Positions 2,939 through 23,480 of a stretch of DNA of 26,932 bases are shown piece after piece. The DNA lies in the NCBI GenBank assembly GCA_041739995.1, contig JBGSMV010000050.1, forward strand, positions 1 through 26,932. Reading direction: 5' to 3'. Source of the DNA: Bdellovibrionota bacterium (lineage in GTDB: Bacteria > Bdellovibrionota_C > UBA2361 > JBGSMV01). The translations under genes and the position numbers were made by a program. Below the pieces are notes generated by a model that did no database searches, was not told the origin of the DNA, and was given only the letters and a program-made list of their open reading frames with translations. Positions within the stretch are counted from its first letter, which is position 1; the number at the start of each line of letters is the position of its first letter.

Positions 2939-3595
2939 ATGGAACGCAATCGTTGGTCAGTACGACTTCCTGAGGAACTCGAGAAACGAGTCGAGCGCGC
3001 CGCGCTTGGAGCTGGATTGAATCGAAGCGACTACCTCAGAAAAGTATTGAGGGATTCGGTTTCTGATGCAGGAGAGAACGAAGCGTTAAAGGCTACGGTC
3101 GCAAAGCTTCATAACCGCATCACCACCCTGCAGAACTCTCTAGACATGATGCTTTCTATGCTCTCTCTTTTTGTACGGCGCTGGTACACGCACCAAAGAC
3201 CCATTACCGATAAGCGAGAGAGGTCTGTGGCTGAGGCAATTGGAGAGAGGGCGCACCGCGCGTTCTTGCGCCAACTTCTAGAAAACCCAGAGCTTGGGAG
3301 CGAACTTCTTGAGTCTGAAATTAGCGAATCCGCACAGGACGCTCAAAGCGAGGAAGGGCAGGGGAGAGAGGTTGATGAGCAGCCTGAGCCGTTTGATTTT
3401 GAACCTGCACCAGAACAACCAGCGACCATAGCCGAAGTGGCCCCTGCGGCTAGCGTGACAGACACCGCTACGTCACCCGCCGCTTTTGTCAGAGAGGATC
3501 AACGCTGGGAGGATTGGAGCGGCAACGGAGCAGCGCGGCCGGCAAAGAGAAGGTTGCAGGTGCCGGCGGGGCCGAATGTTCCGTCGCTTCGCTGA
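2939..3595 (+). CDS. CopG/ribbon-helix-helix DNA-binding protein with coiled coil and acidic low-complexity tail (probable relaxosome accessory)
   Basis: N-terminal RHH pattern WSVRLPEELEKRVERAA...NRSDYLRKVL. It follows traG directly, as the CopG gene does in Tn4371-like elements. Confidence 0.7.
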   Translation: MERNRWSVRLPEELEKRVERAALGAGLNRSDYLRKVLRDSVSDAGENEALKATVAKLHNRITTLQNSLDMMLSMLSLFVRRWYTHQRPITDKRERSVAEAIGERAHRAFLRQLLENPELGSELLESEISESAQDAQSEEGQGREVDEQPEPFDFEPAPEQPATIAEVAPAASVTDTATSPAAFVREDQRWEDWSGNGAARPAKRRLQVPAGPNVPSLR

Positions 3596-3731
3596 TGATG
3601 TGAGGGCGCCTCATCCCATTTAGTATAACAAAGCAGGTGGGGGTAAATGCGCCTGTTACACCTTCTCTAGGCTGAGGAAGAGGGGAGAACTCAAAGGTCA
3701 TTTTGTTGACGCCGCACCATCGACCAGGACC

Positions 3732-3758
3732 AGCCGCCACGCTACTCCCGTGGCGGCT
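3732..3758. terminator. GC-rich hairpin (10-bp perfect stem, 7-nt loop) overlapping the exonuclease stop codon
   Basis: AGCCGCCACG-CTACTCC-CGTGGCGGCT lies between convergent genes. There is no U-tract on either strand, so terminator function is uncertain. Confidence 0.45.
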
Positions 3759-4398
3759 AACGTACGGTGCCAAGACTTTCAAGGAGGGCACTGAGCACCC
3801 TGACCTTCGAACGCGGAAGAGTTTGCGTGAGCAGTTGAATTCCCGCCCGGCAGTCGTTCACTGCCCTATGCGCTTGAAAGGTAATTCCATATCTGCGAGC
3901 TAAGCTCATGAGACTGATTCCAGAAACTCCCTCCCTTCTCCAAGGCACGTCAGCAATCGAACATCCCCATGTAGCCTTTCTGAATACAGGGAAACGCGGT
4001 TCAAGAAAGGCCCGGTCGAACTCAGCATTGTGGGCCACTACCAACTGCACTCCGCGCAGAAGTCTCAATACGCGGCTGTCGTCTATCCGCTCCCCCCTTA
4101 CATGCTCGTCCGTAATTCCAGTGAGGGCGACTATCGTTGAGGAGAGAGGAATGCCGGGGTCCTCCAGCTGCCTAAATGGGGATCCTACAGCGAGAACTTC
4201 GCCCCCCAAGGTGTACTCAAAGGGCATCATCGCCAACTCAATGATTCGATCTACCCTTGGATCGAGCCCACTAGTCTCTACATCTACAAACAGACCTTTC
4301 TTTGAGCATCCACCATCATTCGCAGCGTCGAGCGGCAAGAACGTGAGGGCGCCCCGCTTGCAATATCGAGTACCACCTCGTGTCTTTTGCCTTACCAT
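3757..4398 (-). CDS. DEDDh 3'-5' exonuclease (DnaQ/epsilon-like)
   Basis: ExoI VDVETSGL, ExoII AHNAEFDRAFL and ExoIII HRAVNDC motifs are all intact. Confidence 0.92.
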   Translation of the reverse strand: MVRQKTRGGTRYCKRGALTFLPLDAANDGGCSKKGLFVDVETSGLDPRVDRIIELAMMPFEYTLGGEVLAVGSPFRQLEDPGIPLSSTIVALTGITDEHVRGERIDDSRVLRLLRGVQLVVAHNAEFDRAFLEPRFPVFRKATWGCSIADVPWRREGVSGISLMSLARRYGITFQAHRAVNDCRAGIQLLTQTLPRSKVRVLSALLESLGTVR

Positions 4399-4492
4399 TT
4401 CTTTAGTCCTGGCGATATTGTAGCCATACCGTTCTAGTCGGTGAGACGCGATTGCGATATTTGAGGAACACTATATTTTTACCGGTACGGCG

Positions 4493-5479
4493 ATGCACAC
4501 TGATGGTAGCAGTTTTCTTCGGCGAGCCAGGGTATTTATTCAAGCATTGAGCGCGAATGAATATCCCAACGCCTCTGTGATCATGCGGATCGATGGGTGC
4601 TCCCGCAGTACGGCGATGCGCGTTATTGATCGACTTCGGTATGAATTTGCTGTTCCGTTCGGCTTCGACGAAGCCAGACGAGGGTACTTCCTCAGAGATA
4701 GCTCCTATCGGTTTTCAACTCTCCCACCCGGGACTGACGAACTTACAGCCCTGCTTCTGATGCGCGATATGGCGCGGCTGGTCGGCTCAAAGGATCTCTA
4801 TGAAAAGGCAGACAGCTTGTGGTCCAACATCGTTCAGGGGAACCCCCGCCTAGAGCAAGACCTCAGAAGACTGGTGTCTTACTTCTCCAGCGAATCCTCT
4901 GTAGTAGTGAAACTTTCGGAGCTTCGAATACTAGATCTTCTATCAGTGGCTTCCCGCGGTGACTCGGTCTCACTTCGATATAAATCACCATGGCGAGAGG
5001 GGGAGGCTAAGGTATTTCGAGGGCAAGTGCTTCGAGTTCATCTCTCTGACGGCCTTGTGTACCTTCTATTCCATTCTGAATCCGGGCGAGAATTTGTGCT
5101 CAACGCATCCTTTATTGAGGGATTCGAGGTGCTCGACACCTCGGTATCTCTGCCATACATTTCTGACGTTGCTCAGAGAGCACACAACTGGCTCGAAGGC
5201 TTTGGGGTATGGGCCGGTGCAGCAGTCGAAACTGTAGAGGTTCGCATTCGTCCTCCTGGGGCACACTATTATGCCTCGCAAAGTTGGCACGAGGATCAAG
5301 AGGATAAATGGGAGGAGGGGCACCTGGTGCGTACTTTCCCAGCCATCCCATCGCCAGAACTGGCACGGCGATTATTAAGCCTCGGCCGATATCTCGCAGC
5401 GGTCAAACCTACGAGTATTGCAGCCCTCCTCGAGGACGATATTGCATCTCTCGCAGCACTCGTCGATAGAAGCCCCTGA
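4493..5479 (+). CDS. HTH-WYL-WCX transcriptional regulator (degenerate WYL motif)
   Basis: N-terminal wHTH (CSRSTAMRVIDRLR...FDEARRGY), central WYL-like region (LRYKSP...DGLVYL) and C-terminal WCX-like region (WHEDQE...ELARRLLSLG). It sits immediately upstream of cas3. Confidence 0.82.
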   Translation: MHTDGSSFLRRARVFIQALSANEYPNASVIMRIDGCSRSTAMRVIDRLRYEFAVPFGFDEARRGYFLRDSSYRFSTLPPGTDELTALLLMRDMARLVGSKDLYEKADSLWSNIVQGNPRLEQDLRRLVSYFSSESSVVVKLSELRILDLLSVASRGDSVSLRYKSPWREGEAKVFRGQVLRVHLSDGLVYLLFHSESGREFVLNASFIEGFEVLDTSVSLPYISDVAQRAHNWLEGFGVWAGAAVETVEVRIRPPGAHYYASQSWHEDQEDKWEEGHLVRTFPAIPSPELARRLLSLGRYLAAVKPTSIAALLEDDIASLAALVDRSP

Positions 5480-5555
5480 GCGGTTTGGACGTGTAGCGCG
5501 TCTCGATACAGGTCTTGATCGCCCCCTTGGAAGCACTATCCTGTCGTTGGAAGCG

Positions 5556-8291
5556 ATGACCACAGAGGCGAACTATTATAATTATTGGGGCAAGACTGCT
5601 CCCGCTGAGGACGGGCCGTGCCCCTTTCACCTGCTGCCGTACCATTCGCTGGACGTCGCAGCGAGCGGGTATGCTCTCTTAATGCACAACTCGGCGCTTC
5701 GGCATCGTTTGACGGAGCTCAGTGGGATAGAAGAGGATCAGCTCGTTCCTCTTCTATCGCTGAGCCTCGCCCTGCACGATCTCGGCAAATTTTCATCCCG
5801 ATTCCAAAACCTCTCTCCCAACGTTAACGCCCGCCTCGGTGGGGAACAAACCGCTCTCCCCTATTCAACAAGACACGACAGTCTCGGATTTCTGTTCATC
5901 CTGTCGACTTTTGAGGGACCTACTGGGAAGAACTTTTCCTTACTGGAGTCCAAGTGCAATCAATATGATTTTTGGGATATCGTTAGCCCTTGGTTTCGAG
6001 CCATCACTGGGCACCACGGACAGCCCCCACTAAACCCGCAGCAAGTATCGTTTGAGGCGAGCCAGCACTTCTCTGCTCAAAATACTATCGACGCACACTC
6101 ATTTTGGTCTGATCTTGAAACCCTATTCAAACGCCCTCGCTTTCCAAGCGACCTACTAGCGGAATATGAATCCTCTAGGCGCAAAGTAGCACGCCTCGCT
6201 TGGATTCTCGCTGGTTTTGCAGTGGTGGCCGATTGGCTGGGTTCGAATCGAAGCTTCTTCCCGTTCCTCGATACGCCGCTTCCGCTCTCTGAATATTTTC
6301 AAGATCGTGCGATTCCAAGCGCGGAGAGAGCCGTCTCAGTTACGGGACTCGCTCCTTCAACCCTCTTGCCTCAAGCGAATACTTCATCGCTCATTTTGGG
6401 CTCGTTTTCACCATCTCCGCTTCAGAAGGCGGCGCTTGAGGTTGAACTCTCAACTGGACCGGAGCTCTTCATCGTGGAGGACATGACCGGATCCGGAAAG
6501 ACGGAAGCGGCGCTGATTCTGACGCACCGCCTCCTCCAAGCAAACCATGGACGCGGATTCTTCTTCGGCCTTCCGACGATGGCGACATCAAGCGCCATGT
6601 ACGATCGGGTGAGCGCCCTGTATCGAGGCATGTTTGATGCATCGTCTCATCCATCTCTGGTACTCGCCCACTCCACGGCTCGCTTGAGTGACACCTTCAT
6701 GAGTTCAGTGCCTTCCGCCGATGCGTTGGTAAGTGACTACTGGGAAGGCGAGGCTACCGCAGAAGCGTTCTGTACTTCCTGGCTCGCTGACTCATCAAAG
6801 AAAGCACTGCTAGCCGACGTTGGCGTGGGAACAATTGATCAAGCACTTCTCGGTGTCCTTCCCCGAAAGTACCAGAGTCTTCGCTTATTCGGGCTCCTAG
6901 AGAAGGTGACAATTATTGATGAAGTTCATGCTTTCGATGAATTTACTCGACGTCTCATTTGTGGGTTGATTGAGTTTCAAGCTACATATGGCCGATCAGT
7001 TATTGTTCTTTCGGCGACACTACCTAGCTCCACCCGAGAAGAGCTCGTTGCTGCGTTTAACCGCGGGGTCTGCATAACAGGGCCGGTTGTGACTCCGGAC
7101 CTGTCATATCCGCTTCTTACCACAACTTCTATCTCCGGCACGCGGTTCACCCCACTCAGCACCCGAGAGGGACTCGCCCGAAAGATCGACATTCTTCCGT
7201 TTCACGACGAGTCTTCAGTGCACGCAGAGATTATTCAGCGCTCGCTTCGGGGCGAGTGTGTTTGTTGGATCAGAAATACTGTGGATGACGCAATTAGCGC
7301 CTATATTGCTCTTAAAGAGCGCATCGATGCTGAGCACTTGCGCCTTTTTCATGCGCGCTTCATTTTCGACGATCGGGATCGGATCGAGTCTGAGGTTCTC
7401 GACAGCTTCGGGCCCCGCTCAGGAGCTTTCGAGAGGCGTGGTAGAGTAGTAATTGCTACGCAGGTCATTGAGCAATCCTTAGATATCGATTTTGATTTCT
7501 TAATATCTGACCTAGCTCCCATAGATCTTCTTTTGCAACGCATGGGACGATTGCGGCGGCATTCACGAGCAGAGGACGGATCACGAGTGGAGCGAGACAG
7601 GAGGGGTGCTATCGTATTCGGGCTCCACTCCCCCCCGTACATAGAAGAACCTTCTCACACCTGGTACTCAGAAGTTTTCAAGCGATCATCTTTTGTTTAC
7701 GAGGACCATGGAAAGCTCTGGCTCGGTGCTAGGGAGCTTCTTTCTCGAGGTCAGATTGAGCTTCCGAAAGATGCCCGCTCCTTAATAGAGGCAGTGTACG
7801 GCGCAGAGGCACCGTACCCCAGCGGGATGGAGTCCGTTCGACTCAAAGCCGAGGGGGCGGAACGCGCTCGCGCCCAGCTCGGGGAGCTTGGTGTTCTTAA
7901 GCCACTCCGTGGCTATGAGCGTGGAGTAGAGTGGGGGAGTGATGACATTGTCGGCACAAGACTCGGTGATTTAAGCTTCGAGATTCGTCTGGGCGTATGG
8001 CGCGGCACCGAAGTTCAGCCTCTTAGCAGTGCGCCCAAGGGGCAATGGGTGCGGAGTGCCGTTCGCGCGCCGCGCCATAAGGTCGCACGCGCCGCGCCCC
8101 CCACTAGCGCAGCGCGACTTAAGTCCCTGGAGACAGCATCAAAGCTGCCTCTTAACAAGTTCTCCACCATCATTCCACTTGACTTTGCTGGGGATCAATT
8201 CTACGCGTCAGTGTGCAACGAGTCGGGGCGCCGGCACCAACTTGCCTACTCGCGCGAGCTTGGCCTCTACTTTCCCGAAAGGCAGAGATGA
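5556..8291 (+). CDS. cas3: Cas3 HD nuclease-helicase (type I-E)
   Basis: YWGK, HSLDVA, HDLGK, GHHG and ADWLGS (HD domain); TGSGKTE, DEVH, SAT and QRMGRLRRH (SF2 helicase). The start was moved to ATG 5556 to avoid overlap with the WYL gene. Confidence 0.97.
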   Translation: MTTEANYYNYWGKTAPAEDGPCPFHLLPYHSLDVAASGYALLMHNSALRHRLTELSGIEEDQLVPLLSLSLALHDLGKFSSRFQNLSPNVNARLGGEQTALPYSTRHDSLGFLFILSTFEGPTGKNFSLLESKCNQYDFWDIVSPWFRAITGHHGQPPLNPQQVSFEASQHFSAQNTIDAHSFWSDLETLFKRPRFPSDLLAEYESSRRKVARLAWILAGFAVVADWLGSNRSFFPFLDTPLPLSEYFQDRAIPSAERAVSVTGLAPSTLLPQANTSSLILGSFSPSPLQKAALEVELSTGPELFIVEDMTGSGKTEAALILTHRLLQANHGRGFFFGLPTMATSSAMYDRVSALYRGMFDASSHPSLVLAHSTARLSDTFMSSVPSADALVSDYWEGEATAEAFCTSWLADSSKKALLADVGVGTIDQALLGVLPRKYQSLRLFGLLEKVTIIDEVHAFDEFTRRLICGLIEFQATYGRSVIVLSATLPSSTREELVAAFNRGVCITGPVVTPDLSYPLLTTTSISGTRFTPLSTREGLARKIDILPFHDESSVHAEIIQRSLRGECVCWIRNTVDDAISAYIALKERIDAEHLRLFHARFIFDDRDRIESEVLDSFGPRSGAFERRGRVVIATQVIEQSLDIDFDFLISDLAPIDLLLQRMGRLRRHSRAEDGSRVERDRRGAIVFGLHSPPYIEEPSHTWYSEVFKRSSFVYEDHGKLWLGARELLSRGQIELPKDARSLIEAVYGAEAPYPSGMESVRLKAEGAERARAQLGELGVLKPLRGYERGVEWGSDDIVGTRLGDLSFEIRLGVWRGTEVQPLSSAPKGQWVRSAVRAPRHKVARAAPPTSAARLKSLETASKLPLNKFSTIIPLDFAGDQFYASVCNESGRRHQLAYSRELGLYFPERQR

Positions 8292-9904
8292 TTTTCAATC
8301 TACTTGAGCAACCATGGCTGCCGATCGTACGTAGAAGCGGCTTACGCACGCTAGTCTCTCCGAGCGCCATTACCTCGGGAATCACAGAAGACCCAATTCT
8401 ACGCCTCGGCGCTCCACGCCCCGATCTCAATGGCGCGCTGATTCAGTTCCTGATTGGCCTTGTCCAAACTGCCATGACGCCCGAGACGCCGAGAGATTGG
8501 CGAGCGAGAATCGCCACACCCCCCACACAAGAAGAGCTTACTTCCGCCTTTAAGCGTTATGGGCACGCTTTCAACCTCATTGGTGCTGGCCCAAGATTTA
8601 TGCAGGACCGAGACGAGGAACTTGACGGCAATCTATTTGACGTTGGACGCCTATTGATTGATTCACCAGGAGATCAATCGGTAAAACGAAACATTGACCA
8701 CTATGTTCACCGCCAACCCAGGAGACCTTTCGGGCTCCCGGCTACAGCTTCGGCACTAATGTGTCTTCAACTGAACGCACCCAGTGGCGGCCAAGGACAT
8801 CGCGTCTCCTTGAGGGGGGGAGGGCCTCTTACCACTCTGGTGACAAGCGCACGGAGCCTCTGGGATCTCGTATGGCTGAATATCTTGCACAAGGAGCAAC
8901 TGCTCGATCTTGGCGGCTCACTAGATGAGACTGATACAAGCATCTTTCCCTGGCTTTCGACTTCTCGCACGAGCGAAAATGACGAGGAAGTTACCCCGCT
9001 TGACGTCAGCGTTCTGCAAGCATTTTGGGGAATGCCAAGGAGAATTCGCCTTTCAGTAACTTCCTCTGAGGAGGGGGCCCTATGCCCAATCTTCCATACC
9101 CAGGAGAAGCACCTTTGCTCCGGATTTACGATGAAGGCGTACGGCTCGAGCTACGGAGGCAATTGGCGCCACCCCCTTACTCCCTATTCAACTCGGAAAG
9201 ATGGGGCGCTAAACCCAATAAAGACCGGGGTTGCCTCCCCTGGCTACTCAGACTGGCTTGGGTTGTTGTTCTCCGAGGCAGAGAGCGGAGGGCGAGAACC
9301 ATCAAGAGTAGTTGAAGCGTTATTGGGTGACCGAGCCAAGCAAGAATACTCCGCCTCGAGGATTTGGGTCTTTGGATACGCCGTCGATAACATGAAACCG
9401 TTGCGTTGGGTCGATTCGGAGATTCCCATTTTGTTCTTCGAGGAGGACGACCGGACTCAACTTTCTGTTTCAATTCGGAGGCTGATCAAGAGCGCATCTT
9501 CGGTGCACCAGGACTTGCGCGCTGCGATCAAAAGCGCCAGCCTTCCAGACGCTAAGAACTTTTTTAATGCCTCCTGGGATCCAACGTGTGAGTTTTGGTC
9601 GTCCACAGAGGCGGAATTCTTGGATATAGTGAAGGGGCTTTCGAAGCTACCTAACGCTTGGGAGAGCTCTGCATTGAGATGGATTCAGTACCTCTCTGAG
9701 CGTGCTCAACGCATCTTCTCGGACGCCGTACTTTCTGGTGAGAACGACTTTCTTAATTGGCAGAGATCTTTTGTTGCACTAAGCAGACTCAAGATGAATA
9801 CGGGGCCCTTTTCCAAGAAACTGAGAAAGATTCTCGACCTCCCTGTTGAGCCGAAGACGAAGCCGACAAGGAAGAAGCAAACAGAGGGAGTCGCACAACG
9901 ATGA
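8288..9904 (+). CDS. cas8e: Cascade large subunit Cas8e/Cse1 (CasA)
   Basis: FNLLEQPWLP, RPDLNGALIQFLIGLVQT, GPRFMQD, SLRGGGPLTTL, FWGMPRRIRL and WRHPLTPY motifs. ATGA overlap with the cas3 stop at 8288-8291. Confidence 0.95.
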   Translation: MIFNLLEQPWLPIVRRSGLRTLVSPSAITSGITEDPILRLGAPRPDLNGALIQFLIGLVQTAMTPETPRDWRARIATPPTQEELTSAFKRYGHAFNLIGAGPRFMQDRDEELDGNLFDVGRLLIDSPGDQSVKRNIDHYVHRQPRRPFGLPATASALMCLQLNAPSGGQGHRVSLRGGGPLTTLVTSARSLWDLVWLNILHKEQLLDLGGSLDETDTSIFPWLSTSRTSENDEEVTPLDVSVLQAFWGMPRRIRLSVTSSEEGALCPIFHTQEKHLCSGFTMKAYGSSYGGNWRHPLTPYSTRKDGALNPIKTGVASPGYSDWLGLLFSEAESGGREPSRVVEALLGDRAKQEYSASRIWVFGYAVDNMKPLRWVDSEIPILFFEEDDRTQLSVSIRRLIKSASSVHQDLRAAIKSASLPDAKNFFNASWDPTCEFWSSTEAEFLDIVKGLSKLPNAWESSALRWIQYLSERAQRIFSDAVLSGENDFLNWQRSFVALSRLKMNTGPFSKKLRKILDLPVEPKTKPTRKKQTEGVAQR

Positions 9905-10413
9905 CTACTGAGAACCCAAAAAACAAGGGAACAGATTTCGCAACCATCGTTGGGGCATGGTGGACGTCGAGGCTGCGAAAGGAGCTAGCAGCGAAGTCTG
10001 CCCTCCGGCGTTGCCGAGTGACTGATGACGCTTTCTACATTCCTCTATTTCACGAACTCCTCAGTAGAGTTCGCGCAGCGGAGATTCCAGTTAATGCGGA
10101 CCAACTTGCTCTTGTTGCCTGCTTGCTCTCTCATGTTAAGAGCCCTCACACAGAGGACAACACCTCGCTTGGTCGCATACTTGCCAAACTCCTCACCAAC
10201 TCCCCTTCGGGACAGATACGCTTTCGACATTTACTGGCCGTGCCCTCTATCCGCCGCGACGTTAACGCTCGGACACGCCTGTTAACCGAAGGGCGTCGCG
10301 TGGTCGCACTGCTTGGGGGACGCGTTCCTCTTGAGGATTTCATTGATACTTTTTACTGGTGGGACGATCGCAGGAAAAAAACACTTGCGATGTCCTTTTA
10401 TCAGTTCAGCTAA
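9901..10413 (+). CDS. cas11: Cascade small subunit Cas11/Cse2 (CasB)
   Basis: Small helical protein with SALRRC and IRFRHLL motifs, located between cas8e and cas7. ATGA-coupled to cas8e. Confidence 0.88.
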   Translation: MTTENPKNKGTDFATIVGAWWTSRLRKELAAKSALRRCRVTDDAFYIPLFHELLSRVRAAEIPVNADQLALVACLLSHVKSPHTEDNTSLGRILAKLLTNSPSGQIRFRHLLAVPSIRRDVNARTRLLTEGRRVVALLGGRVPLEDFIDTFYWWDDRRKKTLAMSFYQFS

Positions 10414-10436
10414 CACTCATTTTGTGAGGGACTTAC

Positions 10437-11522
10437 ATGAGCAACTTCCTACAATTACACCTTCTCACCTCGTATCCGCCGGCGAATTTGAATCGCGACG
10501 ATTTGGGACGACCTAAAACTGCGATAATCGGAGGGAGCGAGCGACTACGAATATCATCGCAAAGCCTCAAACGGGCGTGGCGCTCTTCGACAGTTTTTAC
10601 CGAGCACCTTGGAGAGAACTTAGGTGTTCGCACGAAGAGAGTCGGACAGAAAGCATTCGATACGTTAGTGGAGAAAGGGCTCTCCCAGGCGAAGGCGAAG
10701 GAGAAAGCCCTCCAACTCGCGAAATGTTTTGGGGCGGTGGGGGACTCCGAAGAGGAGGAGGATTCGGACAACGAGACCGGCGGTGGAGAGTTACGAAATA
10801 AGCAGCTCTTTTTCTTTAGCCCAGAAGAGACCAGGGTGGTTGACGCCCTTACGGAAAAGCTAGGGTCAGGGGAGGAACTGGATGATTCCGACATTTGCGC
10901 GGCGATCTCTGCTGCGAGTCCCACAGCCTCAGATATTGCATTATTCGGTCGCATGCTTGCTCTAAAGGACCTAGGTGTGGGGAAGAACATTGAGGCTGCC
11001 TGTCAGGTTGCGCACGCCTTCTCTGTCCAGCCCGTAGTAGTGGAGGACGATTACTTTACGGCCGTGGACGACTTAAACTCCGACCAGAGTGGCGCGGCGC
11101 ACATCGGCGTCGTCGAGTTCGGAAGCGGGCTGTTTTACCTATATATTTGCGTGAACAAGGACCTTCTTACGAAGAACTTGAAAGGGGACGCACCCCTTGT
11201 TCGTAAGACCCTAACTGCGCTTGTTGAGGCTAGCGCAACGATCGCACCCACCGGCAAGCAGAATAGCTTTGGCTCTCGAGCTTGGGCCTCATACATTTTG
11301 GCCGAGCGAAGCGCGAAGCAGCCCCGCTCTCTAAGTGTCGCGTTTCTTGATCCCATACGAAGCGCTTCCGGCATGCTGGAGGAGGCGGTCAGTCGCCTTC
11401 GAAAGCAGCGCGATTCATTCGACTCATGCTACTTCGACGCAGGCAGCTTCGAACGATATGAGCTCTGCGTCTCGGAAGGAGCTGGAAAACTTTCAGACCT
11501 CGTCGAGTTTATGGCGCGATAG
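10437..11522 (+). CDS. cas7: Cascade backbone Cas7/Cse4 (CasC)
   Basis: ANLNRDDLGRPKTA, RISSQSLKRAWR, DIALFGRMLA, DDYFTAVDDL and PTGKQNSF motifs. Confidence 0.97.
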   Translation: MSNFLQLHLLTSYPPANLNRDDLGRPKTAIIGGSERLRISSQSLKRAWRSSTVFTEHLGENLGVRTKRVGQKAFDTLVEKGLSQAKAKEKALQLAKCFGAVGDSEEEEDSDNETGGGELRNKQLFFFSPEETRVVDALTEKLGSGEELDDSDICAAISAASPTASDIALFGRMLALKDLGVGKNIEAACQVAHAFSVQPVVVEDDYFTAVDDLNSDQSGAAHIGVVEFGSGLFYLYICVNKDLLTKNLKGDAPLVRKTLTALVEASATIAPTGKQNSFGSRAWASYILAERSAKQPRSLSVAFLDPIRSASGMLEEAVSRLRKQRDSFDSCYFDAGSFERYELCVSEGAGKLSDLVEFMAR

Positions 11523-11534
11523 AGGGGGGCAGCT

Positions 11535-12257
11535 ATGCACCAGTTCCTTCTTTTCACATTATATGGCCCGCTACAAAGCTGGGGAAACATCGCAGTCGGG
11601 GAGTTTCGTAGCTCAGATTCGGTACCAACCAAATCGGCTATTATCGGACTCGTAGCCGCGTGCCTTGGGTTCCAACGCGAGGAAGAGGGCCTTGTGGCGC
11701 TCCAGAGGTCAGCGAGGATTCTTGTTCGCGTAGATCGGAGTCCGGGGCGCCTCACCGACTTCCACACCGCACAAGTTCCGGGCGCTCAGCGGAATACCAG
11801 GTATCTAACTCGCTCCGAAGAACTCTCAGCCCCAGAACTTCACACAGTGGCCCCATCAAGACGAGAATATCTCACCGATGGTGTCTTTAGTGTCGCCCTC
11901 TGGTCAGACCACCCCGCACCCGTTGCTCTCGAAAATGTACGCGACGCTCTGTTGAACCCAGTGTTTGTTCCGTATCTCGGTCGAAAAAGCTGCCCCCTCG
12001 CCGTTCCACTGTCTCCGTCACTTATTGAAGCGACCAGCGCGCTCGCGGCCATTGGACAGTATTATCCATCGCGCAAGTGGTTCCCAGGCTCGTTTCTTCT
12101 GGAGCGAGGGGCTGAGGTACTAGTGTTCTCGGATGATAGTCCCTTAAGTGGGGTAACCGTCGATCGTTACACAGTTCGACGCGATCAACCGATCGCGTTA
12201 ACGGATAGACAATTCGATATTCGCAGCGAGTGCATAGGGCGAACGACGCTCCCATAG
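11535..12257 (+). CDS. cas5: Cas5e (CasD)
   Basis: LYGPLQSWG, PTKSAIIGLVAACLG, DFHTAQ, RREYL and YLGRKSCP motifs. Confidence 0.96.
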   Translation: MHQFLLFTLYGPLQSWGNIAVGEFRSSDSVPTKSAIIGLVAACLGFQREEEGLVALQRSARILVRVDRSPGRLTDFHTAQVPGAQRNTRYLTRSEELSAPELHTVAPSRREYLTDGVFSVALWSDHPAPVALENVRDALLNPVFVPYLGRKSCPLAVPLSPSLIEATSALAAIGQYYPSRKWFPGSFLLERGAEVLVFSDDSPLSGVTVDRYTVRRDQPIALTDRQFDIRSECIGRTTLP

Positions 12258-12265
12258 GATCTGAT

Positions 12266-12949
12266 ATGCATTTCTCTAAAATCACTTTCGACTCCCACGG
12301 TCTCACTCGACTACTCCAATATCGTGGAGCAGACGAGTACTTCTTCCACCAATTGCTGTGGGAATTATTCTCGGATCAGCCATCTAGTAGGCGAGATTTT
12401 ATCTATCACCAGGCCCTCTCCGCTTCACAGGCATGCTTCTATATTGTCTCGAAGCGGCCCCCCACGGTTCCACCCAATCGTGCAGAGGTTATGTTTGCCC
12501 AAAGCAAGCCTTACCACCCAACACTCCGTAATGCACAGTCTCTAAACTTTCTCGTTCGCGTCAACCCAGCGGTTCGTAAGACCTCCCTAGATGGCCGCAC
12601 AGCTCGTCACGATGTCGTGATGGAAGCGAAGCGGATCGCTTCGAGCGCGGACAACTCTCCGACAGCCAGAATGCTAACCTCCGATTTAGTTACGCAACGG
12701 TGCCAAGCTTGGTTATCCAAGCGCTGCGAGTTGCATGGCTTCACCTTCAAGTCCGAGGAGGTGATGGTCAATGCCTATAGACAGCACTCGTTTCCACGCA
12801 GAGGCAGCCGAGTTAGTTTTTCCTCAGTTGAGTTGAGTGGCATACTCACGGTATGCGATCCCGACTCGTTTCGCAGAGCCCTATATTCTGGAATTGGGCC
12901 CGCTAAGGGTTTTGGGAACGGTTTGATTTTGATCCGGCCACGCACATGA
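12266..12949 (+). CDS. cas6e: Cas6e/Cse3 crRNA endoribonuclease (CasE)
   Basis: HQLLWELF, VRVNP and C-terminal G-loop GIGPAKGFGNGL. The start was moved to ATG 12266, after the cas5 stop. Confidence 0.94.
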   Translation: MHFSKITFDSHGLTRLLQYRGADEYFFHQLLWELFSDQPSSRRDFIYHQALSASQACFYIVSKRPPTVPPNRAEVMFAQSKPYHPTLRNAQSLNFLVRVNPAVRKTSLDGRTARHDVVMEAKRIASSADNSPTARMLTSDLVTQRCQAWLSKRCELHGFTFKSEEVMVNAYRQHSFPRRGSRVSFSSVELSGILTVCDPDSFRRALYSGIGPAKGFGNGLILIRPRT

Positions 12950-13863
12950 CGGAATTTCCCGATCTAAAGCCGATAGCGATTAAAGAACGCGCCTCAGTGC
13001 TCTTTGTCGAGAAGGGGCAGATCGACGTGATTGATAATGCATTTGTGGTAATCGATGCTACGGGGATCAGAACCCAGATTCCCTTAGGTTCCATCACTTG
13101 CTTACTTCTGGAGCCAGGGACTCGAATCAGCCACGCTGCAGTAGCCTTGGCGAGTCGAGTCGGATGCCTTCTACTATGGGTCGGAGAGGGGTCCGTTCGC
13201 CTTTATGCCGCTGGGCAGCCCGGCGGGGCCCGCTCCGATCGCCTCCTCTATCAAGCAAAATTGGCCCTCGAGGAAACTCTCCGTCTTAAGGTGATTCGAA
13301 AGATGTACGAGTTACGATTTGGATCTGCTGCCCCTGCTCGGAGGAGTATCAATCAACTTCGAGGGATAGAAAGCGCTCGAGTAAAGGCTACATATCGGTT
13401 ACTTGCCCAGAGATACGGACTCTCTTGGAAGGGCCGGAACTACGACCATTCCTCCTGGAATGCAGGGGATCTCTCGAACCGGTGCATTAGCTCCGCAACC
13501 GCCTCTCTATACGGAGTGGTGGAGTCTGCCGTGCTCGCAGCTGGCTATGCTCCAGCAATAGGCTTTCTCCACACAGGGAAAGCCCTGTCTTTCGTTTATG
13601 ACATTGCAGATATCGTAAAGTTTGAGACTGTTGTGCCGCTCGCCTTTGAAGTTGCGGCGATGGCGCCCAAAGACCCGGAGAGACAGGTCCGCCTCCGCTG
13701 CCGCGACGCTTTCCGGAGCTCGCGCCTTCTGAGGAGGTTAATTCCTCTAGTCGACGAGGTTTTGGCAGCTGGAGAAATTCAACCACCGCCTCCGAACGAG
13801 GAGGCATTGCCAATTGCAATTGTAGAGGAAGCTGGGCCTGGAGATGTTGGTCATCGCCACTGA
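12946..13863 (+). CDS. cas1: Cas1 (type I-E)
   Basis: LEPGTRISHAA, LYAAGQPGGARSD, QLRGIE, GYAPAIGFLH and SFVYDIAD motifs. ATGA-coupled to cas6e. Confidence 0.98.
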   Translation: MTEFPDLKPIAIKERASVLFVEKGQIDVIDNAFVVIDATGIRTQIPLGSITCLLLEPGTRISHAAVALASRVGCLLLWVGEGSVRLYAAGQPGGARSDRLLYQAKLALEETLRLKVIRKMYELRFGSAAPARRSINQLRGIESARVKATYRLLAQRYGLSWKGRNYDHSSWNAGDLSNRCISSATASLYGVVESAVLAAGYAPAIGFLHTGKALSFVYDIADIVKFETVVPLAFEVAAMAPKDPERQVRLRCRDAFRSSRLLRRLIPLVDEVLAAGEIQPPPPNEEALPIAIVEEAGPGDVGHRH

Positions 13864-14134
13864 AGCCGTCTTGCCCAAACTTAGAGGGCGACTAGCTGTA
13901 TACATGCTCGAAATTCGCGCCGGCCTCTATGTCGCCGATCTCTCCGTACGGGTACGAGAGCTTTTGATCGCACAAGTTTGCGCGGGGCTAGGTGATGGCT
14001 CTGCTATCGTGGCCTGGAGCACCAACAACGAAGCTGGGTTCGAGTTCTTGACATTTGGACCTAACCGAAGGATCCCAACTGCCATCGACGGGTTTCAGCT
14101 AGTTTCGTTTTCCCAGCCACCAGAGACAGCGTAG
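13844..14134 (+). CDS. cas2: Cas2 (type I-E), not fused to DnaQ
   Basis: LRGRLAVYMLEIRAGLYVAD...NNEAGFEFLTFGPNRRIP. 96 aa, overlapping the end of cas1. Confidence 0.96.
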   Translation: MLVIATEAVLPKLRGRLAVYMLEIRAGLYVADLSVRVRELLIAQVCAGLGDGSAIVAWSTNNEAGFEFLTFGPNRRIPTAIDGFQLVSFSQPPETA

Positions 14135-14237
14135 GATTTCCGAAGGCCGGAGAGAGATTCATCCTCGACGAGGACAAGGTTTTGGTAGCTCATTGTCAAT
14201 CTTATTTGGGTAGAGGATCTCTATGGTTAGCTCAAGT
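14135..14237 (+). promoter_or_regulatory. CRISPR leader
   Basis: 103-bp non-coding stretch between cas2 and the first repeat, containing TTTTGGTAG and ending GGTTAGCTCAAGT, resembling type I-E leader ends. The degenerate repeat is at the opposite end of the array. Confidence 0.8.
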
Positions 14238-16217
14238 GTGTTCCCCACATACGTGGGGATGAACCGTGAGCGTTCCGCCGCTAAAGTCTTGTGACGAGGT
14301 GTTCCCCACATACGTGGGGATGAACCGCACCCACGTATAATTAGTGTTCGCCCCACCTAGTGTTCCCCACATACGTGGGGATGAACCGCAACATGAAAGC
14401 CTGGAGATGGCTCAGAGCCGGTGTTCCCCACATACGTGGGGATGAACCGTTCAACGCAACCTGCTTCCAGTTGTACTGAAAGTGTTCCCCACATACGTGG
14501 GGATGAACCGGGACTAATAGCTAGAATCGGAACGGCACGCCCGTGTTCCCCACATACGTGGGGATGAACCGGCTTTTGCAGGAATTCAGCGCATTGTTCT
14601 TCCGTGTTCCCCACATACGTGGGGATGAACCGTTCTCCGCTCCGAGTTGCATAGCTCGGGAAACGTGTTCCCCACATACGTGGGGATGAACCGATAACTG
14701 GGTTTATCAGCTAACTGGATGGGATGTGTTCCCCACATACGTGGGGATGAACCGCGCATACTGACCCAGTCTTGAAACTGGAGACCGTGTTCCCCACATA
14801 CGTGGGGATGAACCGCCGCCGCGCTCTGCGAACATAGCCCAGCCCTCGTGTTCCCCACATACGTGGGGATGAACCGAAACACGCCGCACGCAAAGCCTTG
14901 CGGGAATGGTGTTCCCCACATACGTGGGGATGAACCGAGTTTTGGGCGGGCCGGAGCGTTAGCGAGCTAGTGTTCCCCACATACGTGGGGATGAACCGTT
15001 GAATTGTTAGAAGTGCAAAGGAAAGTTACAGTGTTCCCCACATACGTGGGGATGAACCGCATTTCCATCACATCGCAAGTTAGCGTGCGCTGTGTTCCCC
15101 ACATACGTGGGGATGAACCGAGCTTATCCGGCAGGACTTGGCTCCTGACTTTGTGTTCCCCACATACGTGGGGATGAACCGTTACCGGCAAAGACGGGGA
15201 AGACCTAATTCCTGTGTTCCCCACATACGTGGGGATGAACCGTTGTTCAGATTCCAGTGAGCAGAATGTTTCACGTGTTCCCCACATACGTGGGGATGAA
15301 CCGCCGGGGAAATCTGTATTCCAGGGGTATATCTCGTGTTCCCCACATACGTGGGGATGAACCGGCACGAGGTAGTAAAAACACCTTTTGTAGAAGTGTT
15401 CCCCACATACGTGGGGATGAACCGGAAATAAACATTCAAACAAGAATCGCTAGTAGGTGTTCCCCACATACGTGGGGATGAACCGAAAGGCTGGTTCAGT
15501 TCATGACTGAGGTTGAGGTGTTCCCCACATACGTGGGGATGAACCGACACGCGGATATCTTGATACGCAGTGGGCTGAGTGTTCCCCACATACGTGGGGA
15601 TGAACCGCGCCGCCAGATACCAAGGTCGGCGCCTTGAATGTGTTCCCCACATACGTGGGGATGAACCGCATGGGCGCTTATGGTGGCTGGTCACATTCGG
15701 GTGTTCCCCACATACGTGGGGATGAACCGCGTAACTGGCCGGTGCTGGTCTTTACGCTACTGTGTTCCCCACATACGTGGGGATGAACCGACCCCAGCCG
15801 CTATCTTGCAGAAGACTGGTCTGTGTTCCCCACATACGTGGGGATGAACCGTCTCCTCGGTGGGTCTATCACGCACTGAAAACGTGTTCCCCACATACGT
15901 GGGGATGAACCGTTGTACCACTGCGGGGTGGTCGGAATGTTCCAGTGTTCCCCACATACGTGGGGATGAACCGTTTGCGAACGTAACGTTGCGAATGAAT
16001 TTTTTGTGTTCCCCACATACGTGGGGATGAACCGTAATCAACCTCGTCAGCCAGCTTCTCGTAAATGTGTTCCCCACATACGTGGGGATGAACCGAGTCC
16101 CCAACACAAGCAATAGAGCCAGAGTCTGTGTTCCCCACATACGTGGGGATGAACCGTCGTACCAGTCGACACTGCCTCTACGTTTTTGGTGTTCCCCACA
16201 TACGTGGGGACGAACCT
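14238..16217 (+). CRISPR. Type I-E CRISPR array: 33 repeats of 29 bp (GTGTTCCCCACATACGTGGGGATGAACCG), 32 spacers (31 of 32 bp, one of 31 bp)
   Basis: 61-bp period counted by hand from 14238. The repeat hairpin is TCCCCAC-ATAC-GTGGGGA. The terminal repeat 16189-16217 is degenerate (...GGGGACGAACCT). No duplicate spacers were seen. Confidence 0.99.
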
Positions 16218-16580
16218 CAGCCCCGACAACCACGGTAGAACTAGATTCTCAGCATCATCCGCAAAGAAGACGGAGACCTGGCCATATCGCCTCCCTGGCA
16301 GGCATCGCGCGGTGTTCCTTCCCGCCCCAACCACCAAGTTGGCAAGTTCGTGGCCTCAATTTCCAACCCCCTGTAACTGAGCATGTAATTCGGATTCACT
16401 ACGGAGCTTCCAGCCTCCTTGCATCGAGTCCCGCCCATAAGGCGATCTTTCTGCCGCAGAGCAATACTTGCTGGGGCGGCCCCTTCTGGTTTCTTAAGAA
16501 CTCCATCTGAAGTAAAATTCATAGGAATCGTTTGCTGAATGGGCGAAGTAGTTGAATATACCTTGAGCGCAGGGGGCCCA

Positions 16581-17789
16581 ATGGAAATTAGACATAGCAC
16601 CCCTTCTGAGGCGACTCCCTCAACTGGCGAGCTCATTGAATTAAGACACCCAGACGTCAGTGCCATCATATCTCGCACACGCTTTGCCTCGACTAATCAA
16701 CGCGAGGCCAGGGTAGTATTCGAAGACCTAACCACTAGATCATTGGAGAACTTCCTTCGCTTTCGTTGGGAGCTTACTCCCAGCGAATTTGCCCTCGCTC
16801 AAGAAGCTATGTCCTTTGTCGACCGACGATATTCTGAAATGGGAATAACGGATCTCCCGAAGGCTTTTGGCCCGTTCATTTATGAAGACGTGGATTTTTT
16901 TACTCACGACCATGGCAACCGAAAGAACTTTTGGGAGGACCTTGCCTGGGCGGGAGCAGCAGGCAGAGGTTCGGCAATGTACCGAGTGCTTGGGGTCAGG
17001 GAACAGTCAGGTGTTTCCGTTGAATTTCCAACCGATTTCGCATGTAAAATAGCCCATGAATATACTCACGCTCTAGGGGCTGTTCGAGTATCTTTGCGCG
17101 GACTCAGAGCGAGGGTCCCAGATCTCAGCGGACTCCAGATTGATAGCCCCGAAGGCCACAAGCTCTTTGCGTGCCTCGACGAGTACGTAGCTGAATTGAA
17201 CTCCCACTGCTTCCTTCTTTCCAAAGAGGGCATATCGGAGATTCGCAGCCTCTCAAATGTGGACTTTGACCTAGCGGAAATGTCTGCGAAACATCAAGAA
17301 GCAATCATTGAGGTGGTCAATCGACTTCAATCGCCGCTACGCGAAGAGGAGGGGCAATTCCTACCGAAGCAACTAGAAAGTCTCTATTACAGAGTTGTTG
17401 TGGGTGGCAAGCCTTACGCCTATCGGACTGGCTATGGGGTAAATAACGCTTCGATACGCGCACTCGCTGCGGAGATGTTCGAAGAATATCCCGCCGAAGA
17501 AGCGGAGTCTCTGTTCTCGAGATACGCCCTATTGGCGCATGTTACGGGCGAATATCAAGACTTTTTTAAGCTCATCAAGTCAAAACTAGGGGCTAGAGGA
17601 CTTAAGGTTCTGGCATTTTCTGACCCATACGGAGATGTTTCGTTGGAGAGCGGTCTTTTCATCGTTAGCGCGTCTACGGCCCTGCTGTCTCTCTACGCCG
17701 CTGCTCGAAAGTTACCGTTGGATGAACGCGAATACGTACGCGACTTAATATCAGTGGCCATTGACCCGCGCGGAGCTTCTAAGGCTTAA
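16581..17789 (+). CDS. Hypothetical protein with HExxH...E zinc-metallopeptidase-like motif
   Basis: About 400-codon ORF with IAHEYTHALG followed by LDEYVAE. The start is ATG 16581 (preceded by AGGGGG) or ATG 16539. Confidence 0.6.
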   Translation: MEIRHSTPSEATPSTGELIELRHPDVSAIISRTRFASTNQREARVVFEDLTTRSLENFLRFRWELTPSEFALAQEAMSFVDRRYSEMGITDLPKAFGPFIYEDVDFFTHDHGNRKNFWEDLAWAGAAGRGSAMYRVLGVREQSGVSVEFPTDFACKIAHEYTHALGAVRVSLRGLRARVPDLSGLQIDSPEGHKLFACLDEYVAELNSHCFLLSKEGISEIRSLSNVDFDLAEMSAKHQEAIIEVVNRLQSPLREEEGQFLPKQLESLYYRVVVGGKPYAYRTGYGVNNASIRALAAEMFEEYPAEEAESLFSRYALLAHVTGEYQDFFKLIKSKLGARGLKVLAFSDPYGDVSLESGLFIVSASTALLSLYAAARKLPLDEREYVRDLISVAIDPRGASKA

Positions 17790-17801
17790 AAAGACACCTT
17801 T

Positions 17802-17836
17802 ATCACTATTGATAATATAACATTATCGATAGTGAT
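17802..17836. other. Candidate tyrosine-recombinase crossover site (lox/rst-like)
   Basis: ATCACTATTGATAA-TATAACA-TTATCGATAGTGAT has 14-bp inverted arms with one mismatch around an asymmetric core, about 95 bp upstream of the recombinase start. Confidence 0.7.
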
Positions 17837-17931
17837 GCTATATAAGCCTTAAAAAGCATACTCTAGGCATCTCTTTGTCTATATGATATTTTTGAGTCTA
17901 CTCGAACAAGCAGGTCATCTACACTCATACT

Positions 17932-18891
17932 ATGCCCAAGACGCCCTCACCCCTGATCGACGATAAGGACTTATCCGCCCTTCACCAAGCTGCGAGGAAA
18001 TACGCACGCGCAGCGCTCTCGACGAATACTCAACGTGGGTACAGAAGCGACTTCGAAGACTTCGTACACTGGTGCCATCGGGTCAACCGCAAGTCACTTC
18101 CCGCATCGCCTGAGACTGTGGCGCTCTACCTCACTCAAATGTCACAACACCTAAAAACAAGCTCCCTTCGACGTCGGGTTACCGCCATCTGCCGCGCACA
18201 CGAGCTATCTAAATTTTCATCCCCGACTCTCGACAGCGGAGTCAAAACAGTCCTTCGCGGGATCATTCGAACCAAAGGAGAGGCCGCATCACACGCGGCC
18301 CCTACTCTGCTGAAGCATATCACTCGGCTTGTTTCAGCAATGCCTGATTCCCTAAAGGGGAAACGAGACACCGCTCTTCTTCTGCTTGGCTTCGCCGGGG
18401 GGTTTCGACGAAGCGAGCTTGTCGGGATCGATGTCGACGATGTTTCCCTCCACGAGGAAGGCTTAGTGGTGAATCTTTCTCGCAGCAAAACCGATCAGAC
18501 AGGAAGAGGTCGAAAGGTGCCGATCTGCTACGGTACCCACTCCCACCTATGCCCAGTACGAACATTCTTGTCGTGGTTGTCTGCCTCAAATATTACAACC
18601 GGCCCTGTTTTTCGTCCCGTAGATCAATGGGGCTCTCTTGGCGACGCCCGCCTTACTGCACAGTCAGTGAGGCTTGTCCTGAAAGAGGGATTACTTCGCG
18701 CCGGCATTTCACCACGAGGCTTCTCCGGTCACTCGCTGCGGGCCGGCTTTGTTACCGTAGCCTTTATCAATGGGGCGTCAGAGCGGGAGGTCCAAAGTAG
18801 TACAGGGCACGTCAATTCAAACGTATTGCGCCGTTATCACCGCGACGCCAACTTATTTCGACAGAGCGCCTCGAAGAAACTTGGGCTCTAG
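17932..18891 (+). CDS. Cre/TnpS-like site-specific tyrosine recombinase
   Basis: N-terminal SAM-like NTQRGYRSDF...LPASPETVALYL. The catalytic set is present: R (GGFRRSEL), K (SKTDQ), HxxR (GHSLRAG), H (TGH), Y (RRY). Confidence 0.93.
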   Translation: MPKTPSPLIDDKDLSALHQAARKYARAALSTNTQRGYRSDFEDFVHWCHRVNRKSLPASPETVALYLTQMSQHLKTSSLRRRVTAICRAHELSKFSSPTLDSGVKTVLRGIIRTKGEAASHAAPTLLKHITRLVSAMPDSLKGKRDTALLLLGFAGGFRRSELVGIDVDDVSLHEEGLVVNLSRSKTDQTGRGRKVPICYGTHSHLCPVRTFLSWLSASNITTGPVFRPVDQWGSLGDARLTAQSVRLVLKEGLLRAGISPRGFSGHSLRAGFVTVAFINGASEREVQSSTGHVNSNVLRRYHRDANLFRQSASKKLGL

Positions 18892-18968
18892 CGTCCACGT
18901 TCCCATTTGAGGGACCCCACATGTAGCGCTTAGTCGAATACCCTCAGAACCTTACAGAAGGTTCCTAA

Positions 18969-19487
18969 ATGCCAAGAGGTCGAATCATCATAGTCAGCGC
19001 CGTGGTCTCAGTTATTACAACTCTCTATGGCTACGCAGCCTACAGTCACTTCAATGGACCCCCTTTAGTATTCAACGGAACGCAAAGCGCACCACGCGGA
19101 TTCTACTACCGAGATCTCACTTCCACCCTTTCGCGGGGCACCCTCGTCGCATTCGCTGGTCCGCGCTTAGTAGAATCGCGGCTTCAGGGGAGGATTCCCA
19201 CTCGCAACACCCCCTATCTGCTTAAGCGAATCGGAGCCATCTCCGGCGACATAATCTGCGCACGCGGCAGCAGATTCCAAGTCAACGGCAGGCACCCACT
19301 TCGCATCCCGCGCCTATCACGTCGCGGGACTCGATTTCCGCGCTTGTTTCATGGCTGCACAACAGTCAAGGAGCACCAATGGCTACCCCTTGGGGTTCAT
19401 CTTCGAACAAGCTTCGATGGACGTTACTATGGGCCTCTAAATAGGGCTCTGATAGTGGGGGCATATAAGCCCCTTCTGACCTTCTAG
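18969..19487 (+). CDS. traF: Conjugative S26 peptidase TraF (pilin maturase)
   Basis: N-terminal TM, NGTQSAPRGFY (catalytic Ser), LLKRIGAISGD (catalytic Lys) and SFDGRYYGP. Confidence 0.88.
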   Translation: MPRGRIIIVSAVVSVITTLYGYAAYSHFNGPPLVFNGTQSAPRGFYYRDLTSTLSRGTLVAFAGPRLVESRLQGRIPTRNTPYLLKRIGAISGDIICARGSRFQVNGRHPLRIPRLSRRGTRFPRLFHGCTTVKEHQWLPLGVHLRTSFDGRYYGPLNRALIVGAYKPLLTF

Positions 19488-21667: not shown

Positions 21668-21671
21668 CAAT

Positions 21672-22334: not shown

Positions 22335-22341
22335 GAAGGAT

Positions 22342-23478: not shown

Positions 23479-23480
23479 AA

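Follow-up and report, generated by a model that had tools for sequence, protein, structure and literature searches.

The 26,932-bp contig JBGSMV010000050.1 of a Bdellovibrionota bacterium (assembly GCA_041739995.1), called the window here and analysed over its entire length, is one of the 81 contigs (C24) of a 3.81-Mb draft genome (G000), and carries a complete type I-E CRISPR-Cas (short palindromic repeats, clustered and regularly interspaced, with their associated genes) system in the midst of conjugation genes. The gene content suggests that the window holds the central part of a conjugative element of Trb type (IncP/Tn4371-like), which would be a plasmid or an integrative and conjugative element. 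A listing of open reading frames (ORFs) and profile scans against Pfam and NCBIfam established the gene order given below, in which every gene that an initial annotation of the sequence had placed from relaxase-traG-copG on the left to traF/trbB on the right is present where that annotation put it. The ribbon-helix-helix (RHH) gene in the copG position is the final backbone gene ahead of the cargo, and trbB follows after an interruption of 17.1 kb. The ORF of cas3 is open from 5418; its start at 5556 is our choice, being the first ATG preceding the HD domain.

1..1074, + strand: relaxase, C-terminal part (DUF3363 at 1.1e-20; weak RlxS match)
1092..2930, + strand: TraG/VirD4 coupling protein (T4SS-DNA_transf 1.5e-83)
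2939..3595, + strand: RHH protein in the copG position, 218 aa (RelB-like RHH 1.4e-5, weak)
3757..4398, - strand: short DEDDh 3'-5' exonuclease, 213 aa (RNase_T 9.7e-16)
4493..5479, + strand: WYL/WCX regulator (WCX 1.1e-5; PADLOC CRISPR-associated WYL profiles 1.1e-9 and 8.3e-7)
5556..8291, + strand: cas3 of type I-E (Cas3_HD and Cas3 C-terminal domain; Cas3e 4.2e-194, PADLOC)
8213..9904, + strand: cse1/cas8e (CRISPR_Cse1 1.8e-88)
9901..10413, + strand: cse2/cas11 (CRISPR_Cse2 1.5e-10)
10437..11522, + strand: cas7e (Cas_CT1975 9.7e-93)
11535..12257, + strand: cas5e (Cas_Cas5d 2.9e-35)
12230..12949, + strand: cas6e (CRISPR_assoc 3.9e-43)
12946..13863, + strand: cas1 (Cas_Cas1 3e-12)
13844..14134, + strand: cas2 (Cas_Cas2CT1978 3.3e-28)
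14135..14237, + strand: putative leader, between cas2 and the first repeat, the degenerate repeat being at the opposite end of the array
14238..16217, + strand: CRISPR array, 33 repeats of 29 nt and 32 spacers of 31-32 nt
16539..17789, + strand: orf416, candidate zincin-like metallopeptidase (HExxH motif; H173, E174, H177)
17802..17836, unstranded: lox-like site, 15-nt inverted arms (14/15 match) and a 5-nt centre
17932..18891, + strand: Cre-type tyrosine recombinase, 319 aa (Phage_integrase and SAM-like N-terminal domain, Pfam)
18969..19487, + strand: TraF-like S26 peptidase (Peptidase_S26 4.1e-13; TraF_Ti 2.2e-16, below cut-off)
19566..20696, + strand: orf376 (no Pfam or NCBIfam family match)
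20714..21667, + strand: TrbB, where the backbone resumes (TIGR02782, 415 bits, cut-off 304.55)
21621..22821, + strand: SH3-domain protein and M23 peptidase (Pfam)

The conjugative element and its interrupted backbone

The remaining transfer genes lie on other contigs of the draft genome. The N-terminal part of the relaxase is at the end of contig C4 (RlxS-like matches are found on both C4 and the window); DUF932 and an RHH gene also lie on C4, as does the C-terminal part of an AbiEi gene that begins on C56. The genes at the end of contig C3 are TrbC, TrbD and the first part of TrbE, and upstream of them C3 encodes a sigma-54 response regulator and a double-AAA ATPase of 750 aa; C59 starts within TrbE and continues with a TrbJ candidate (no family match), TrbL, TrbF, TrbG, TrbI and the single-stranded DNA-binding protein SSB. 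These genes on C4, C3 and C59 are each present in a single copy in the genome, and since the relaxase, TraG, TrbB, TrbC, TrbD, TrbE, TrbL, TrbF, TrbG and TrbI are all found across C4, the window, C3 and C59, the set is complete but split; relaxase, TraG and TrbB through TrbI are the components by which a Trb-type (mating-pair formation type T, MPF_T) system is recognized. TraG of the window matches the IncP-type TraG model of NCBIfam at 1.2e-140, under the curated cut-off. The contiguous order traG-copG-trbB-trbC was not found in the element.

Among the closest parallels described are the Trb/MPF_T clusters of IncP and Tn4371-like elements, for example that of plasmid pPNAP01 of Polaromonas naphthalenivorans, which shares with the element an RlxS-like relaxase, TraG and a small RHH gene ahead of the trb genes (TrbB, C, D, E, J, L, F, G and I) and whose TrbB is 52% identical to that of the window. 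In its annotated record, TraG, the CopG-family RHH gene and TrbB through TrbG overlap or abut. The window's cluster differs in being broken twice by cargo, between the RHH gene and trbB and between trbB and trbC, and in the SH3/M23 pair that stands 3' of trbB in the window's lineage; the CopG protein of pPNAP01 has no detectable likeness to the window's RHH protein. The distance from the TraG stop to the TrbB start in pPNAP01 and in three contigs of related genomes (G001, G059, G103) compares with that of the window as follows.

pPNAP01: TraG, CopG and TrbB overlapping; 0.45 kb
G001:C98: relaxase, TraG, RHH gene (157 aa), 77-aa gene, TrbB, M23; 0.83 kb
G059:C23: as G001:C98, with a 79-aa gene and a Fic-motif gene after the RHH gene; 1.96 kb
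G103:C35, a decayed copy: 6.5 kb of RtcB, leucine-rich repeat and lipoprotein genes at the junction; about 7 kb
Window: DEDDh gene through orf376 between the RHH gene and TrbB; 17.8 kb

The expectation of the initial annotation that traG-copG-trbB is normally contiguous and is interrupted here is thus borne out (0.45-7 kb in the four comparators versus 17.8 kb), and the reading that the block interrupts an arrangement contiguous elsewhere holds on the evidence of gene order. The RHH protein of the window is 21% identical to the one in the equivalent position in G001 (E 9e-6, weak but significant), and TrbB is 49-52% identical to TrbB of G001, G059, G061 and G103. The SH3/M23 pair after TrbB is a lineage-conserved feature, being found in G059, G103 and G061 by tblastn or Pfam; in G001, M23 alone was matched 3' of TrbB, the preceding 195-aa ORF lying outside the scan.

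Because unrelated cargo occupies the junction between the RHH gene and trbB in two of the comparators (G059 and G103), the junction is a hot spot for cargo. The 79-aa gene and the Fic-motif gene (HPFxDGNGR, identified by eye) at this junction in G059 (C23, 10631-11574) look like a toxin-antitoxin system. The junction between trbB and trbC is also broken: trbB is followed not by trbC but by SH3, M23, hybrid histidine kinase and response regulator genes, with three minus-strand signalling genes 3' of the SH3/M23 pair in the window, and a second cargo block of signalling genes inside the trb operon occupies 21621-26588 of the window and 1-6215 of C3. With other cargo breaking this second junction, the CRISPR block is one accretion among several.

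The cargo may have its right edge at 18968 or at 20713, depending on whether the TraF-like gene and orf376 are counted with the backbone. No relative of TraF was found in five related genomes with the window's protein as query, which is not proof of absence, and orf376 has relatives of its C-terminal domain only, on other contigs of G001, G059 and G000; its N-terminus is hydrophobic by eye, which suggests export. The G+C content of the window is close to that of other contigs of the element and varies within the block, from 0.48-0.50 over the orf416/recombinase stretch to 0.52-0.57 elsewhere.

Two pairs of genes for RepA (RPA family) and ParA are present in the genome, on C21 (3-4330) and on C81 (about 30270-32370). 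The RepA of C21 is 41% identical to a RepA of genome G105 that shares a contig with a homologue of the window's recombinase and with TraG. The genome probably carries one or two plasmids, of which one may be this element.

The CRISPR-Cas system and the genes beside it

All eight type I-E genes have family matches, are open and stand in order (5418-14134), and the array follows directly after cas2, with repeat and spacer lengths close to the 29 and 32 nt that are characteristic of a complete I-E locus. Thirty-two of the 33 repeats are identical, the last being degenerate; the intact genes and near-identical repeats suggest that the system may be active. Type I-E is patchily distributed: of 124 genomes in the phylum 8 have it, this one among them, whereas the four in the same family are all without it. 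Cas1 is 68-70% identical to Cas1 of two genomes of the phylum, G038 and G044. The spacers have no self-target in the genome that carries them (longest match 18-19 nt), and megablast found no match to the array in plasmid or phage collections. Contigs of two public runs, X2 and X3, have the same repeats with other spacers (window 14329-16129), showing variation of the array within the community.

Conjugative plasmids are well known as carriers of CRISPR-Cas, and plasmids with CRISPR-Cas are described as enriched in conjugative functions, at over 47% versus about 36% (PMC9071438, Pinilla-Redondo et al.). The window resembles the plasmid-borne systems outlined there in that a complete system is accessory cargo beside conjugation genes, and differs from them, as far as they are outlined, in that an uncultured lineage and type I-E are concerned and that the cargo sits within the transfer cluster, between the RHH gene and trbB.

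The gene directly upstream of cas3 encodes a WYL/WCX protein, which was matched by WCX and by the PADLOC WYL profiles although not by the WYL model of Pfam, and which is likely, from its domains and position, to be a transcription regulator of the cas operon. A 42% identical relative lies upstream of cas3 in G038; the I-E locus of G044 yielded none with the window's protein as query. A 48% identical paralogue is found about 3 kb from a second cas3-like gene on contig C19 of the same genome. This cas3-like gene encodes 827 aa with HD, helicase and Cas3 C-terminal domains, and is separated from the WYL paralogue by a gene for a trypsin-like protease (C19 about 6200-12760, L015:1192-7760); the genome may therefore hold a second, different CRISPR-Cas or cas3-based locus. 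The WYL/WCX domains, the placement directly upstream of cas3 and the pairing in two further loci agree with the WYL defence regulators described by Makarova et al. 2014 (PMC4012209), as far as these are characterized there. Since the WYL gene recurs with cas3 and its product matches CRISPR-associated WYL profiles, the WYL gene and the cas operon form a believable unit, and the WYL gene is the sole part of the block beyond the cas genes to recur with cas3.

The divergent DEDDh exonuclease gene is a different case. It belongs to a PRK09182-like family of proteins of about 297 aa (255 proteins at E <=1e-10, the best 54% identical; 206.9 bits versus the PRK09182 cut-off of 207), and its product covers only residues 37-216 when aligned with relatives about 295 aa long, lacking the C-terminal domain of about 80 aa of the family, with the 3' end of the gene facing the left junction of the block. 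Complete homologous ORFs, of which there are 68 among 80 metagenome loci, encode 255-642 aa compared with 213 aa in the window. No relative of the WYL gene or of the I-E cas genes was found near the DEDDh homologues in any of these 80 loci, 41 of which extend at least 2.5 kb on the relevant side, and the gene is absent from both of the related I-E loci (G038 and G044). The initial annotation had cast this protein as the trimming nuclease of the cassette. A stand-alone DEDDh gene, or a Cas2-DEDDh fusion, is described beside I-E systems that lack Cas4 (PMC10284694, Wang et al. 2023), and the window is like these, as they are presented, in having a DEDDh gene beside a Cas4-less I-E system; it differs in that its DEDDh gene is unfused to cas2, divergently placed and shortened. 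The DEDDh domain itself is present and recurrent linkage to cas genes is not found, so that a trimming role by analogy with Cas2-DEDDh is possible but unsupported.

Between the array and the lox-like site, orf416 has no match in Pfam, NCBIfam, PHROG or PADLOC. A full HMMER search found six relatives among 1.84 billion representatives, where a word-indexed search had found none; H173, E174, H177 and E215 are invariant across these few relatives. The protein thus belongs to a very rare family and, judging by these residues, may be a new zincin-like peptidase. Look-alikes in the ESM Atlas provide weak zincin-like leads in phage 'Peptidase MA-like' clusters (scores 0.84-0.91). A structure model predicted from the single sequence had a mean predicted local distance difference test score (pLDDT) of 35 and was not used.

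The Cre-type recombinase and its lox-like site

The best solved relative of the recombinase is Cre (E 1.4e-9, residues 26-306 aligned to Cre 34-328), followed by XerD. R159, K186, H267, R270, H293 and Y302 are invariant in an alignment of 11 sequences, and the HxxR motif and the tyrosine align with those of Cre; the protein thus has the catalytic R-K-H-R-H/W-Y set and two domains with no arm-binding domain. The palindrome, for which a division into 14-nt arms and a 7-nt spacer is an alternative reading, lies 96 nt upstream of its start codon. Palindromic sites close to the genes of Cre-type recombinases are documented, and G-A-T-A beside the spacer is reported for active sites (PMC10250229, Jelicic et al. 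2023). The pair in the window is like the Cre/loxP and Cre-type pairs described there in its two-domain recombinase, its alignment over the full length of Cre, its conserved catalytic residues, the palindrome within 100 bp of the gene and the G-A-T-A next to the centre. It differs from Cre/loxP of phage P1 in that the likeness is distant (E 1e-9), the centre has a length of 5-7 nt in place of 8, and the module stands among transfer genes and is known from sequence.

The 15-nt half-site does not recur in the window at zero mismatches, and none of 100 shuffles reached the observed count; a search of the genome found no second copy of the palindrome, leaving one site. A near-match on C42 was rejected as a partner, being inside an ORF and having an 8-nt centre, and a stretch of 16 nt on C19 that is identical to part of the site was put down to chance, since it lacks a palindromic partner. 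A perfect 14-6-14 palindrome on C36 (178660-178693) was likewise rejected, with arms and centre that differ and no recombinase nearby; it has ATAA/TTAT inner arms, is intergenic between housekeeping-type genes and is a candidate chromosomal dif site. A 13-nt direct repeat (12/13 identical) flanks the palindrome of the window at 17781-17793 and 17844-17856, the first copy overlapping the stop of orf416, and was not seen in relatives.

Homologues of the recombinase were found in 17 of the 124 genomes of the phylum including this one, at 61-63% identity in G103, G105 and G107 and about 42-45% in the others. A similar palindrome is present at the same upstream distance in 8 of 11 homologues examined in the phylum and missing from the other three, and changes in one arm are mirrored in the opposite arm, as between G103 and G105. 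In a wider scan, 596 relatives were identified among 603 candidate stretches, so that the family occurs in at least 596 species genomes across many phyla, and 80 loci were retained for analysis. The core CGATAA-N5-9-TTATCG (at most one change, within 300 nt) occurs upstream of the gene in 29 of 79 wider loci versus downstream in 2 of 74, with a background of 22 matches in 1.13 Mb. The conserved position, the mirrored arms and the upstream bias indicate that the site and the recombinase are a real and conserved pair, a discrete module of 1.1 kb. No second similar site was found within 10 kb in any of the 29 loci that carry the motif.

The 91 loci compared (11 in the phylum within 6.5 kb of the recombinase gene and 80 wider within 10 kb) contain no relatives of the window's cas genes, TraG, TraF, TrbB or orf416. 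A CRISPR array is present at none of them, the window serving as positive control, and the co-occurrence of this recombinase clade with cas operons that the initial annotation had suggested looking for is therefore not seen; nor is its converse, a recombinase that stays linked to traF/trbB (none of 11 loci in the phylum and none of 80 wider loci). On separate contigs of the phylum, the pair shares a 41-kb contig with RepA, ParA, ArdC, AbiE, a relaxase, TraG and an RHH gene in G105, and lies 40 kb from TraG on one contig in G059; neighbours in relatives include ArdC, ParDE, AbiE, metal-efflux genes, MmeI and SNF2 defence genes, and others. Linked neither to CRISPR nor to traF/trbB, the pair belongs to conjugative elements generally, at variable places.

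Genome G107 has a full site with the same centre as that of the window on a 164-kb contig (G107:C5, L062, about 1490-1530) with no recombinase beside it; this site could be a target that is unoccupied, or else the distal end of an element that has integrated. On another of its contigs (G107:C51, L047), two copies of the last 106-129 nt of the recombinase gene, each ending at the stop codon (2146-2259 and 5273-5395), lie downstream of the intact gene and bracket cargo of GNAT, methyltransferase and AbiE genes. Similar C-terminal fragments of the recombinase occur in three of the 80 wider loci (L088, L147 and L154). Such fragments may indicate that the 3' end of the recombinase gene is another hot spot of recombination.

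Assembly of the block and the role of the recombinase

The juxtaposition of these genes is hardly conceivable as a chimera of metagenome assembly. The draft is in 81 contigs and the element is split over at least four of them, which would permit such an error, but short contigs of other runs bridge 3479-3911, 17361-17966, 18505-19111 and 18714-19051 at 100% identity, and the agreement in G+C between the window and the other contigs of the element also opposes it. The bridging contigs come from four public runs, possibly including the source sample of the window, and are not fully independent.

The arrangement probably arose as cargo accumulated step by step at a hot spot in a Trb-type element; on this reading the CRISPR-Cas system is not separately excisable and the Cre-type pair serves to resolve multimers. 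The junction between the RHH gene and trbB would have accumulated several independent pieces, among them the shortened DEDDh gene, the orphan HExxH protein and the 1.1-kb recombinase module with its lox-like site, in an order of acquisition that we infer to have been successive, and the CRISPR-Cas system would travel whenever the whole element conjugates. The recombinase would bind as a dimer at the palindrome, which precedes its gene by about 100 bp, and resolve multimers of the circular element, as Cre/loxP does for the P1 plasmid; with one site per genome and plasmid-like contigs in relatives, multimer resolution is its most likely task, integration or excision of the element being the second option.

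That all of the parts from the DEDDh gene to the recombinase (WYL, cas, array, HExxH gene and lox-like site included) form one self-contained cassette, excised and moved between conjugative elements by a recombinase of its own, as was originally proposed, is very unlikely. The parts are all adjacent within an interrupted backbone, the recombinase looks catalytically intact with a good site alongside, and the cargo is on the site side of it. A recombinase-bounded cassette would be expected to have two direct sites flanking the cargo and to recur as a unit in other backbones, and neither was found: there is a single site in window and genome, the near-match on C42 being unsuitable as a partner, and no shared repeat of at least 9 nt was found between the left junction and five candidate right junctions. 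The recombinase is a widespread separate module whose 91 loci lack CRISPR arrays and cas relatives, the DEDDh family is never found beside cas or WYL genes and its copy in the window is shortened, and the G+C content is heterogeneous along the block. Among contigs of the four public runs over 2400-22300, none joins across the block, although at 1-5x coverage this does not show that excision is absent. All seven joints listed in these contigs fall within the array and look like spacer variants. A contig of run X4 has a further replacement at 17707-18007, spanning the lox-like site and the start of the recombinase gene, which was left uninterpreted.

Several observations weigh against accretion with multimer resolution. 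The DNA likeness of the module among G103, G105 and G107 extends exactly from the outer arm of the site to the stop codon of the gene, a sharp break that looks more like an att-type junction or a moving module than like a plain resolution site. The assembled contigs stop short of the ends of the element, and the RepA and ParA relatives are on contigs (C21 and C81) unlinked to it; the element is a candidate plasmid. The search for empty alleles recovered the contiguous order in distant comparators (TraG 36-39% and TrbB 49-52% identical) and no close empty-site allele: TraG has homologues in 8 of 91 genomes of the order including this one, the best at 39% identity, and single-protein queries of genome and metagenome contig collections returned neither closer TraG relatives nor an empty site, so that the insertion is deduced from gene order and not from junction sequence. 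TraF and orf376 are within the gap between the RHH gene and trbB and were not seen there in relatives, making the right edge of the cargo uncertain. The DEDDh protein matches the PADLOC profile for CRISPR-ancillary DEDDh nucleases at 1.3e-26, and on this account a role in spacer trimming is conceivable.

The sharp boundaries of the module bear on two other explanations. The recombinase and its site could serve as integrase and attP, either for the element as a whole or for a smaller mobile unit starting at the site, which would then mark a past or potential integration junction; this is a possible but not a favoured explanation. It would account for the break in likeness at the outer arm and for the DNA on the site side, which differs in every relative, as well as for the orphan site on the 164-kb contig of G107 and the extra 3'-end fragments of the recombinase gene in G107 and in three of the 80 wider loci. 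Yet in the window the site is surrounded by genes of the element, with cas and traG to one side of it and traF and trbB to the other, and does not stand at a border between chromosome and element here; the 319-aa protein has no arm-binding domain and aligns to Cre end to end; and no second site was found within 10 kb in the 29 loci. Somewhat less plausible is that conjugative elements dock at the 1.1-kb unit and exchange cargo there, or that the unit is itself a minimal mobile one, for which the breaks at the outer arm and at the stop codon, the variable DNA on the site side, and the orphan site and 3' fragments of G107 also speak. If so, circular DNA or co-resident elements would recombine at a shared site and the DNA on its site side would be swapped whole, in this case the CRISPR-Cas block, and the recombinase would have brought CRISPR into the transfer operon though not dedicated to it.

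The window illustrates that a full adaptive immune system can ride inside a transfer operon in a poorly known bacterial lineage, and that cargo is loaded recurrently at the junction between the RHH gene and trbB. CRISPR-Cas borne by plasmids and by integrative and conjugative elements being already known, the find extends the picture and does not change it. Perhaps the more useful by-product is a widespread family of Cre-type recombinases in which the sequence directly upstream of the gene reveals the lox-like site, as recombinase-site pairs are sought as tools for genome engineering; the sharp boundaries of the module also raise the testable question of how cargo is shuffled between conjugative elements. 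Contigs of runs X3 and X4 match the window only rightward from 2882 (the end of traG) or from 13918 (within cas2), with unlike sequence leftward, a hint that the element has mosaic relatives. The public runs in which the locus occurs are labelled as hot-spring and biofilm metagenomes.

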